DNA of 64,000 bases from a virus. Taxonomy: Duplodnaviria; Heunggongvirae; Uroviricota; Caudoviricetes. A program made the position numbers and the translations under genes. The notes beneath the pieces are model-generated. The model searched no databases, had not been told where the DNA came from, and was given only the letters and a program-made list of their open reading frames with translations. The stretch is from IMG/VR virus record IMGVR_UViG_3300025131_000004. One strand, 5' to 3'. Position 1 is the stretch's first letter. Every line of letters starts with the position of its first letter. Shown here piece by piece: positions 39,491 to 41,529 of the stretch.

Positions 39491-40000
39491 TCATAGCGTC
39501 AACTCCTGAACCTTCTCCAAGCCCTCTTTGACTGCGAGGTCTATGACTTCGATGGACTGCGCCCGGCAATACCGGACACCGTGACCCGTACCACCTCCCC
39601 AAGGCACGTCGTGATTCAGACGTGCAATGCAGAGTTGAGAGTCACGTACGATCATGATGTTTCTTGCCATCAACTTCCTCACGAAAGCAGACAGCCTCTC
39701 CCAAGCACCGTGATACTCTTCAGCAATACGATACAACTCCGGGTCCTGATGCACGCTGGGCGCAATAAGGATGCGGTTCTTCGGATGCTGAGCATGACGC
39801 TGAAAGCCCTCGGATGGCAGGCAGAGAGTCACCAGCTCGGGACGAACCCGATTAGCTCCTCTTGCATAAGCTTGGTCAGCACCGGGAGCGTTACCACTCC
39901 ACAACTCATGACCAGCTTCAACTATCCGAGCACCTAACATCTCCATCAGTGCAATCTCGGCATCACTTGATGCTCTGCTACCGATGCAACTTACCTTCAT
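39491..40000 (-). CDS. SLOG/DprA-like Rossmann protein (DUF2493-like)
   Basis: SGNAPGAD motif (GGxxGxD-like). Confidence 0.45.
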   Translation of the reverse strand: MKVSCIGSRASSDAEIALMEMLGARIVEAGHELWSGNAPGADQAYARGANRVRPELVTLCLPSEGFQRHAQHPKNRILIAPSVHQDPELYRIAEEYHGAWERLSAFVRKLMARNIMIVRDSQLCIARLNHDVPWGGGTGHGVRYCRAQSIEVIDLAVKEGLEKVQELTL

Positions 40001-40194
40001 CTACCCTACCTCCACAAATCAACTCCCACTGTCCTATCCTGAACAGGTGAACAAGTGCCACCAACTAAGATAGAACTCAAATAGCATAACCGGGATAAAC
40101 TTAGAACAGAGAGTGATACAGCTATACGTTCTGAACTAGCTATTGGCTATGAGAAAGCGAGGCGTGTAAGCCTCTAATGCTACTTGTCTCCTCT

Positions 40195-40692
40195 TCAGGC
40201 TTGAAGTAGTAGTTGGGAGCGGCGAAGGGTAAGGAGTCGCCCAAGCCAATTCTGGCCTGGTGCTCCTCGAAGGCACTGGGGACGCTCCGGTGTACCACCG
40301 CAGTGGCAGACACCCCAGTAGTTGTCGTGCCAGGTGTTGCCTTCGACTAGGAGCCTTGTTCCAGTCTCAAGCAACTTTTGGGCGAGTCGTGGGTTGGTGT
40401 GCAGGTCAAACTTCTGCACAGTAAGGTCCCACATTATTGCTGCTTTGACAGCGTCCCAGTCAGAGCGCATATCTACGCGCTGACCCAGGCGTTTGGCCTT
40501 GCCAGGGGTGGGAGAGATCTCAATTTCCTTACGTTCAGCAAGATTGAGAGTCTTGGCAGCCTGATAGGCATGCTCCGTGGTTGGATAGGAAGCTCCGTCA
40601 AGAGTGACGACAACTTCCTGGAAGTTGGAGAGAAAGCAATTGGGACCTTGAAAGTCCCGTAGGTAGGTTGTCAATGGTGCTCCTTGAGCCAC
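40195..40692 (-). CDS. NADAR-domain protein (YbiA-like)
   Basis: FLSNF..YPTTEHAYQAAK, the signature N-terminal motif of NADAR. Confidence 0.7.
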   Translation of the reverse strand: MAQGAPLTTYLRDFQGPNCFLSNFQEVVVTLDGASYPTTEHAYQAAKTLNLAERKEIEISPTPGKAKRLGQRVDMRSDWDAVKAAIMWDLTVQKFDLHTNPRLAQKLLETGTRLLVEGNTWHDNYWGVCHCGGTPERPQCLRGAPGQNWLGRLLTLRRSQLLLQA

Positions 40693-40964
40693 GCGATGAT
40701 GATATCACCATGGCACATCTTCTGATTCTTGCCGGCGTATCGACAGGAGCAGCCCAGGATCTTGTCTTTGAGCCCCACAACAAACGTGGCGAACTCCTCG
40801 TCCTTCATCATGGCCTGGAAGTATTGCTCATAACGAGCGATAGACTCCTCCCTTGGCTCATTCGGAAGAACCTCCATGCTGATGCCGACACTGTCAGCAA
40901 AGCCAAGGCCCCGAGAGATCGGAACCTCGAACTTCTGCTCTCGAATACATACAAGCTGAGTCAT
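40671..40964 (-). CDS. DUF4326-like protein
   Basis: LGCSC...CHGDII motif; a partner of NADAR. Confidence 0.55.
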   Translation of the reverse strand: MTQLVCIREQKFEVPISRGLGFADSVGISMEVLPNEPREESIARYEQYFQAMMKDEEFATFVVGLKDKILGCSCRYAGKNQKMCHGDIIIAWLKEHH

Positions 40965-41046
40965 CGTTTTCTTCTATTGTGGAGATATAAGCAATAGCAA
41001 AGAACAAACAGGAAGCCAATTGTTTGACCAACTAAGATTCCCGTCA

Positions 41047-41529
41047 TCATTCCCTCCCGACTACAATGATGCCATCATGCATGAGATGGCGAATGCGAGG
41101 ACGAACCTCGTCTTCCCAGCTCAAGCCTCCCAAGCCACATCCAGGACGTGGCAGGAGACAGATGTCACCAGGATAGGCAAGATCACTAAGATGGTGAGCG
41201 CTCCTGACAATCAAATCAAGGTCACTTGGGTTGCGCCAATCAATCTTGGTGGGAAACGCCACCAACTTATATGTCGCTCCTATCACTCGCCCTATGACCG
41301 TAGTGTTGAAGACGTGCTTGCGCAACATCTCACCATACCTGGCATCGGGAAGCGGAGTCTGATACTCCTTGGTTGTTACGAGCCTAATATTGTCTCGAAC
41401 GTGCTTGGCAACACCCGCGCTCATAGCTGCACGTCCACTGCCAGCTCTTCGAAGGTTCGTTGTCACGCAGACCATATCCGCTCGATAATAGTCTGCAAGT
41501 TGCCACAGATCACCTGTGGTCTCACGCAT
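41047..41529 (-). CDS. macro-domain (ADP-ribose binding/hydrolase) protein
   Basis: GDLW..D..V..TN, G.G.A and AFPTKIDW..PSDL motifs. Confidence 0.6.
   Translation of the reverse strand: MRETTGDLWQLADYYRADMVCVTTNLRRAGSGRAAMSAGVAKHVRDNIRLVTTKEYQTPLPDARYGEMLRKHVFNTTVIGRVIGATYKLVAFPTKIDWRNPSDLDLIVRSAHHLSDLAYPGDICLLPRPGCGLGGLSWEDEVRPRIRHLMHDGIIVVGRE

Follow-up and report, generated by a model that had tools for sequence, protein, structure and literature searches.

A four-gene phage cassette of macro, DUF4326, NADAR, and SLOG proteins with a possible role in countering ADP-ribosylating defenses

Why would a phage carry four consecutive genes from families linked to ADP-ribose processing? The question is raised by IMG/VR record IMGVR_UViG_3300025131_000004, a virus of the class Caudoviricetes, of which a stretch of 64,000 nucleotides (the window) was analyzed. 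The initial annotation, made from the sequence alone, placed genes for a macro domain, a NADAR protein, a DUF4326 protein, and a SLOG/DprA-like protein in a row at positions 39491-41529, and four open reading frames (ORFs) on the minus strand indeed fill these coordinates exactly, in the transcription order macro, DUF4326, NADAR, and SLOG. All four family assignments stand: NADAR and DUF4326 are placed by Pfam, and macro and SLOG by other profile libraries, structure prediction, and motifs. The cassette type has already been described in phages, and this locus is a clear but ordinary example of it. We give a roughly even chance to the favored explanation, which is that the locus is an accessory counter-defense cassette that reverses base ADP-ribosylation and disposes of the ADP-ribose products, with substrates, timing, and targets that we infer.

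The macro protein resembles the antitoxin DarG. The Pfam Macro model (PF01661), which had been proposed as a check, does not recognize it, and no Pfam family matches at E ≤ 0.1; among its 99 homologs, PF01661 is present in about one third. It matches phrog_335 (6e-17), a PHROG family labeled 'phosphatase', and DarG is its sole match in both PADLOC (1e-9) and NCBIfam (antitoxin_DarG, 1.4e-9, 37.7 bits against a cut-off of 250, model positions 71-137 of 338). The AlphaFold2 model (predicted local distance difference test score, pLDDT, 96; predicted template modeling score 0.91) adopts the three-layer α/β/α macro fold. Its best Foldseek matches in the PDB are DarG structures 5m3e (4e-8, template modeling score 0.70-0.73), 5m3i, and 7omu, followed by human TARG1 (4j5s); the matched DarG macrodomains come from the DarTG systems of T. 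aquaticus, M. tuberculosis, and T. africanus.

Across 62 macro homologs, residues N25, G39, K95 (in FPTK), P129, G130, and G134 are invariant, and the loop reads PxPGCGxGG. The active-site Asn, the catalytic Lys, and the glycine-rich phosphate loop (P129-G130-x-x-x-G134) are all present in the phage protein, whose loop PGCGLGGL is as in DarG. The loop of TARG1 differs from it in carrying a catalytic Asp. N25 and K95 are the equivalents of N22 and K80 of T. aquaticus DarG (residues of DarG and AdfM from PMC13309987). The protein shares its catalytic residues with the DarG2 components of DarTG2 from T. aquaticus and M. tuberculosis (5M3E, 5M3I), which are its best structural matches. Unlike DarG, which has a second, DarT-binding domain and an adjoining DarT, it is a single domain of 160 residues with no DarT or other ADP-ribosyltransferase as a neighbor, and it does not qualify as a DarG antitoxin proper.

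A characterized phage relative is AdfM (gp104 of PhiKZ and macro proteins of other chimalliviruses), an anti-DarT factor that removes DarT2 marks from DNA (PMC13309987). Profile alignment with hhalign matches PhiKZ AdfM to the macro family (probability 99.6%, E 2e-23) at a pairwise identity of 26%, and by these comparisons the protein is a clear AdfM homolog of the DarG2/AdfM type. Both are stand-alone phage macros of about 160 residues that share the active-site Asn and Lys and the motifs FPTKxxWRNPS and PxxGCxxGGL. AdfM acts alone and is imported into the phage nucleus (PMC13309987), and PhiKZ, unlike the phage studied here, encodes no DUF4326, SLOG, or NADAR protein within the 40 kb inspected. 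A tblastn search of cultured phages with the macro protein returned one weak match, in a Moorella phage, and the subfamily is essentially metagenomic.

The NADAR protein matches Pfam PF08719 (E 4.2e-24, 86.1 bits against a cut-off of 35.1) over model positions 7-162 of 163, as well as the NCBIfam model of YbiA-type proteins, TIGR02464 (85.4 bits against a cut-off of 73.7). By sequence, its closest relative in the PDB is E. coli YbiA (2b3w, 1.6e-12), which unlike the phage gene resides in a LexA-controlled bacterial operon; a second NADAR structure, 8bau, matches at 7e-4. In the alignments with 8bau and YbiA, residues E40, K47, W79, K83, E117, D123, and W126 occupy ADP-ribose-contacting or catalytic positions, a mapping made on the assumption that numbering in the PDB chain is shifted by 2 residues. 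The catalytic and ADP-ribose-contacting residues of P. nicotianae NADAR are E43, K50, W89, R93, E125, D130, and W133 (PMC11543638). The position that defines NADAR subfamilies is a Glu (LVE117GNTWHD), which assigns the protein to the YbiA subfamily. The DarT1-linked type carries Asp at this position and the T4 gp30.3 type carries His; the Pfam model of the latter (Phage_30_3) gives E 0.05 and 13.9 bits against a cut-off of 36.

Several relatives of this protein act on ADP-ribosylated bases. T4 AdfN (gp30.3) and the unrelated NADARs of phages Bas32 and Bas60 remove DarT1 marks and neutralize DarTG1 (PMC11257639). Like them, the window NADAR is a stand-alone phage protein with intact catalytic residues, although it belongs to the YbiA subfamily (Glu) and AdfN to the T4 type (His). 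All NADAR subtypes tested, including YbiA, hydrolyze guanine-ADP-ribose but not thymine-ADP-ribose in vitro (PMC11125620). A YbiA-like NADAR from myxobacteria is the antitoxin of the ADP-ribosyltransferase YarT (PMC11125620), which it adjoins, unlike the NADAR of the cassette, which has no ADP-ribosyltransferase neighbor.

The DUF4326 protein passes the Pfam check as the NADAR protein does (PF14216, E 2e-9, 38.4 bits against a cut-off of 25). It also has a weak DUF488-N3a match, and it matches phrog_464 at 4e-9. Its Cys/His motif, LGCSC...CHGD, aligns with LGCxC...CHGD of five phage homologs. Iyer et al. 2022 predict that DUF4326 is a phosphatase (PMC9503650).

The SLOG protein is a Rossmannoid domain with a confident AlphaFold2 model (pLDDT 96.6). 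The suggested DUF2493 model does not match it in the Pfam scan, and its hits to DNA_processg_A (6e-4, 19.4 bits against 29.6) and LDcluster4 (4e-3, 17.1 bits against 26.3) are below the cut-offs, so Pfam does not place it in the SLOG clan. It matches phrog_768 (6e-31), which PHROG labels 'DprA-like DNA recombination-mediator', and Foldseek relates the model to DprA (4ljk, 7e-6), Moco carrier protein, ShosA, LOG, and the SLOG domain of ThsA (7uxs). Among 22 homologs, G36, N37, A38, G40, D42, R113, G137, and T138 are invariant and N114 is nearly so. These residues fall in the motifs SGNAPGADQ (after strand 2), RN, and GGGTG, which supply the glycine-rich loops and the conserved Arg expected of SLOG proteins. 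Structure prediction and motif inspection, along the lines proposed in the initial annotation, bear out the macro and SLOG assignments, which Pfam misses.

Anti-Avs (type III) activity has been reported for one phage SLOG protein, ORF83, which has amoeba-virus homologs that carry a fused DUF4326 domain (10.1101/2025.06.06.658234). By description rather than by sequence, the window protein is like ORF83 in being a small stand-alone phage SLOG with an R-N ... G-T motif and linkage to DUF4326. An origin of ORF83 in phage PhiV-1 was rejected, because PhiV-1 has only 49 genes.

The gene directly downstream of the cassette, which the initial annotation did not pick out, encodes a degenerate SLOG paralog. 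It aligns with the SLOG family in hhalign (probability 97.2%, E 3.6e-11) over residues 28-357 with a gap at 107-265, and its C-terminal part matches phrog_768 at 2e-6. An insertion of about 165 residues, which has no detectable family, interrupts the SLOG domain, and the motifs of the domain are degenerate, with GGGAP in place of GGGTG and the RN lost. The paralog is probably non-catalytic; a syntenic homolog is present in the related contig L001 described below, and the paralog is a possible fifth member of the module.

The linkage recurs in other phage contigs. A scan of IMG/VR with the macro alignment yielded 80 loci, and the ORFs within 6 kb of the macro on either side were searched with domain hidden Markov models; the DUF4326 model was built from short single-domain proteins, excluding a DUF4326-SLOG fusion. 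DUF4326 was found in 5 loci, SLOG in about 9, and NADAR in 2. In the locus that carries the fusion (L006), macro, NADAR, and the fused DUF4326-SLOG gene stand in a row, with assignments confirmed by PHROG scans, and in L032 macro, NADAR, and SLOG occur together. The syntenic relative L001, whose macro is 47% identical, encodes macro, DUF4326, a 246-aa protein, SLOG, the SLOG paralog, and a large protein in the same order. Between the window and L001, the cassette proteins are 39-50% identical, compared with 26-35% for most neighbors, and are among the best conserved of the region. About 9 kb beyond the gene for the 246-aa protein, L001 also encodes a cREC_REC domain protein (19854-20186 of L001), a family likewise linked to the ADP-ribose network.

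Phage neighborhoods that join SLOG with Macro and NADAR, and linkages or fusions that include DUF4326, have been described previously (Iyer et al. 2022, PMC9503650, Fig. 5h; a jumbo-phage survey, PMC7824862). These systems are like the present locus in linking the same four families as small stand-alone proteins in early or accessory regions of DNA viruses, and in them DUF4326 either adjoins SLOG, Macro, and NADAR or is fused to them, as in L006. They are unlike it in that here four separate genes, for macro, DUF4326, NADAR, and SLOG, are accompanied by a degenerate, insertion-bearing SLOG paralog. The claim that DUF4326 is a recurrent partner of NADAR is borne out by this literature and by the fusion next to NADAR and macro in L006. 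The recurrence of these families near related macros suggests more than chance co-occurrence. Partner families gave 16 matches in 915 kb around macro relatives and 0 in about 133 kb of control phage DNA, a baseline so small that the local enrichment is not significant by itself; the statistical case for linkage rests on Iyer et al. 2022 (PMC9503650) and the L006 fusion. The NARP3 NAD+ pathway was rejected as a match because its components are unrelated.

The four genes form an operon-like arrangement (Table 1). The NADAR gene is likely to start at the TTG at 40674 rather than at the GTG at 40692, since the TTG follows an AAGGAG ribosome-binding site and is also the start called in an independent assembly, and the stop codon of the DUF4326 gene overlaps this TTG. 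A common ribosome-binding site, GGAGGTAGG, precedes the macro and SLOG genes, and all four genes end in TGA. The independent assembly, a 120-kb contig from a different sample (L003), is 99.8% identical to window positions 31047-51529, so the arrangement is not an assembly artifact. The proportion of G and C at third codon positions is 0.52-0.67 in the cassette genes compared with 0.79 in the flanking genes. A promoter and terminator scan of 37.8-43.2 kb gave counts no higher than in shuffled sequence and nothing significant in the NADAR-SLOG spacer, and a repeat search of 33-58 kb found no regulatory repeat tied to the cassette. The small ORF upstream of the macro gene overlaps the macro start by 8 nt and matches no family in Pfam, PHROG, or NCBIfam scans.

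Table 1. Features of the cassette and its immediate borders, in window positions.
Feature	Coordinates	Strand	Description
Macro	41047-41529	minus	160 aa; stand-alone; DarG2 / AdfM / TARG1 class
DUF4326	40671-40964	minus	97 aa; rhodanese-phosphatase-like; predicted phosphoesterase
NADAR, YbiA subfamily	40195-40692	minus	165 aa from GTG at 40692; likelier 159 aa from TTG at 40674
SLOG (DprA/LOG-like Rossmannoid), stand-alone	39491-40000	minus	169 aa
SLOG paralog	38044-39207	minus	387 aa; next gene downstream of cassette
NADAR-SLOG spacer	40001-40194	none	194 nt, AT-richer (44% GC)
Small ORF upstream of macro	41522-41734	minus	70 aa as longest ORF; 58 aa as called in L003

The analysis shows to which families the proteins belong, what folds they have, that their active-site motifs are intact, that the genes are laid out like an operon, and that the grouping recurs in other phages, all of which is consistent with the following mechanism. 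The macro protein would act as an orphan DarG2-like (AdfM-like) hydrolase that uses Asn25 and Lys95 to release ADP-ribose attached to thymine of single-stranded DNA or held in similar macromolecular adducts. The YbiA-type NADAR would cleave the N-glycosidic bond of ADP-ribose on guanine, and possibly on cytosine too, as suggested by the in vitro activity on guanine-ADP-ribose of all NADARs tested (PMC11125620). Together, the two enzymes may reverse the ADP-ribosylation that DarT1-, DarT2-, or YarT-like toxins impose on the bases of replicating phage DNA. In the least certain step, the phosphatase-like DUF4326 protein and the SLOG protein, as a nucleotide binder or N-glycosidase, would process or sequester the released ADP-ribose or NAD-derived products. 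The initial annotation had proposed, with due hedging, either counter-defense against DarT-type toxins or handling of NAD-derived signals; these are the two leading explanations here, and the DarG2/AdfM type of the macro with its catalytic Asn and Lys strengthens that proposal, with function inferred.

Several points weigh against reversal of base ADP-ribosylation as the role of the whole cassette. AdfM and AdfN work alone, so de-ADP-ribosylation of DNA leaves the linkage with DUF4326 and SLOG unexplained. In E. coli cells, E. coli YbiA and the T4 NADAR gave no rescue of DarT1 toxicity (PMC11125620), and the curated NCBI model TIGR02464 names the YbiA type a riboflavin-intermediate N-glycosidase. 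The Glu that serves catalysis in LOG is missing from the SLOG protein (GGGTGHG as opposed to GGxGTxxE), so this protein may only bind a ligand, and enzymatic activity is not to be assumed. Among the 80 loci with related macros, 66 have no partner gene within 6 kb, which makes the linkage recurrent but not obligatory. L001 has no NADAR: its NADAR slot (10812-11552 of L001) holds the unrelated 246-aa protein, which has no significant match in Pfam, PHROG, NCBIfam, PADLOC, or the PDB, and the slot is therefore variable rather than a fixed part of the module. Finally, Iyer et al. favor low-molecular-weight ADP-ribose derivatives as the main substrates of phage Macro, NADAR, and SLOG proteins, on the basis of computational prediction (PMC9503650).

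This last point leads to the strongest rival, a possible but doubtful explanation in which the cassette does not repair modified DNA but breaks down or captures small immune signals or toxins derived from NAD, such as the cyclic ADP-ribose isomers of Thoeris, His-ADPR, ADPr-1''P, and ADPr>P (ADPr being ADP-ribose). Each enzyme would then attack its own bond: SLOG and NADAR the N-glycosidic bond, the macro protein substituents of the distal ribose, and DUF4326 terminal phosphates. It is the published prediction for exactly these linked domains, including the phosphatase assignment of DUF4326 (PMC9503650), and it accounts for the linkage and fusion of four ADP-ribose-processing folds seen in L006 better than reversal of base ADP-ribosylation does. 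The SLOG fold is also that of the cyclic ADP-ribose sensor of ThsA (7uxs), to which Foldseek relates the SLOG protein. This explanation fits the macro protein less well, since characterized relatives of the DarG2/AdfM type act on DNA adducts. A literature search turned up no enzyme of these families that degrades Thoeris signals. We know of no such report, and the anti-Thoeris factors known to us are sponges, not macro or NADAR enzymes, which also counts against it.

A broader form of the counter-defense reading would make the cassette a dual-specificity DNA de-ADP-ribosylation operon with product disposal, in which the macro protein would act on thymine adducts and NADAR on guanine or cytosine adducts, while DUF4326 and SLOG would dismantle or capture the ADP-ribose and the degenerate paralog would serve as a binder. 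This proposal is rather unlikely. If true, it would mean that a single operon beats both DarTG1 and DarTG2, along with YarT-like toxins, and DUF4326 and the stand-alone SLOG proteins of phages would be assigned biochemical roles for the first time.

It is distinctly unlikely that the cassette serves housekeeping, clearing the ADP-ribose by-products of tRNA repair (ADPr>P and ADPr-1''P) or damaged riboflavin and nucleotide intermediates beside a large tRNA array and an NAD+ synthase. The NADAR protein does pass the NCBI model for YbiA riboflavin-intermediate N-glycosidases, the macro belongs to a PHROG family labeled as a phosphatase, and the window encodes 30 tRNA genes, two HAD_SAK_2 proteins, a DHH phosphoesterase, and a NadE-type NAD+ synthase. 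NADAR and macro proteins have also been tied to RNA repair contexts (PMC9503650). However, these tRNA, HAD_SAK_2, DHH, and NAD+ synthase genes are 9-38 kb distant and sit in a block of different composition, and the immediate surroundings of the cassette showed no Tpt1/KptA, 2H phosphoesterase, or RNA ligase. A single ligase turned up in the window, the ATP-dependent DNA ligase encoded at 3535-4632, about 35 kb off. What recurs beside related macros in other phages is SLOG and DUF4326 rather than RNA repair genes. The macro protein is moreover of the DarG type with a catalytic Lys, from which the Poa1p/ADRP-type macros differ.

A cassette that acts as a toggle or self-immunity device for an ADP-ribosyltransferase of the phage itself, or as one half of a phage-borne toxin-antitoxin pair, is very improbable. 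Pairs of this kind have been described in phages, joining ADP-ribosyltransferases or sirtuins with Macro, NADAR, or ARG domains (PMC9503650), the myxobacterial YbiA-like NADAR is the YarT antitoxin (PMC11125620), and the cassette is flanked by a 942-aa orphan and several small ORFs with no assigned function. However, none of the scanned genes of the window, which is part of a genome of roughly 195 kb, encodes an ADP-ribosyltransferase, sirtuin, or TIR domain, and the Pfam tables precomputed for the neighbors list none.

The least probable explanation makes the SLOG protein a DprA-like recombination mediator, or a mimic of a DprA-like antitoxin (ShosA or PsyrA), that stands beside ADP-ribose enzymes by accident. 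It draws on the DprA Rossmann domains as best structural matches, the PHROG label, weak PADLOC matches to PsyrA (7.5e-5) and ShosA (1.4e-3), and the anti-Avs report for the related phage SLOG protein ORF83 (10.1101/2025.06.06.658234). It falters because the PADLOC matches span only the first ~50 residues, the sub-threshold Pfam match covers residues 2-53 only, the GGGTG and RN motifs of the SLOG type are present, and the fusion of SLOG to DUF4326 beside NADAR and macro in L006, together with published fusions, argues for a functional linkage. The full DprA architecture is also missing: DprA carries further domains beyond the Rossmannoid one, whereas the phage protein is a bare domain of 169 residues.

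The phage that carries the cassette is large and uncultivated, with contigs of up to 195 kb encoding the same proteins, and it has no close cultured relative. A blastn search with positions 38-43 kb against 50,697 phage records returned no match, and the AAA+ protein of the phage shares no more than 34% identity with proteins from jumbo phages of Caulobacter, Brevundimonas, and Tunturiibacter. The cassette is embedded in a long block of small unannotated genes on the minus strand, and gene orientation turns from minus to plus at about 58 kb. The window is a compositional mosaic with about 45% GC at 1-34 kb and about 58% at 34-58 kb, separated by a sharp step near 34000. A chimeric assembly at this step was rejected, because L003 is collinear across it and the mosaic is therefore real. 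A tandem pair of 24-nt repeats lies near the boundary at 34993-35040.

Directly downstream of the SLOG paralog, the orphan gene of the minus strand (35104-37932) encodes a 942-aa protein with no Pfam, PHROG, PADLOC, or PDB match, and a search of 5.8 billion proteins returned only itself and near-identical copies; its syntenic counterpart in L001 is 30% identical. Upstream of the cassette, a gene on the minus strand (41835-42329) encodes a 164-aa protein with a C-terminal CxxCxGxG zinc-finger motif and weak matches to the central domain of DnaJ. Farther upstream are a perfect 32-nt repeat (47951-47982 and 49227-49258, 1276 nt apart) and a 110-nt direct repeat (54649-54758 and 55074-55183, 425 nt apart) with 89% identity. 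A 2083-aa SNase-domain protein on the plus strand appears to start near 59973 and run off the end of the window, with coordinates inferred from the mapping of L085.

The low-GC half contains the 30 tRNA genes (1228-27104, minus strand), which cover nearly all amino acids, as well as the DNA ligase gene. One of the tRNAs (6036-6109) has the anticodon CTA, would read the amber stop codon, and is labeled tRNA-Pyl by ARAGORN; the cassette genes all end in TGA, so amber suppression would not affect them. Among the tRNA genes, also on the minus strand, are two genes for HAD_SAK_2 ('Swiss Army Knife RNA repair' HAD) proteins (25271-25774 and 19072-19575) and the DHH phosphoesterase gene (23618-24619), an arrangement that suggests a tRNA or RNA maintenance module. 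The NadE-type NAD+ synthase is encoded on the minus strand at 29192-30256 (Pfam NAD_synthase, 1.7e-19; TIGR00552, 67.1 bits against 63.65) and is a second NAD-related function of the phage, about 9 kb from the cassette. It is adjoined by a calcineurin-like metallophosphoesterase (30269-31222).

The locus alone leaves current understanding unchanged. What it offers is a single operon in which AdfM-like and NADAR enzymes are joined by uncharacterized DUF4326 and SLOG partners. The macro and NADAR types have phage relatives with experimentally proven anti-DarT activity, whereas DUF4326 and the phage SLOG proteins, which time and again occur linked or fused to both, are still uncharacterized. With four compact genes, intact motifs, and natural variants in the L006 fusion and in L001, which is without NADAR, the locus is a convenient experimental system. 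It is suited to asking whether the enzymes share one substrate chain and whether one phage counters both thymine- and guanine-directed ADP-ribosylation.

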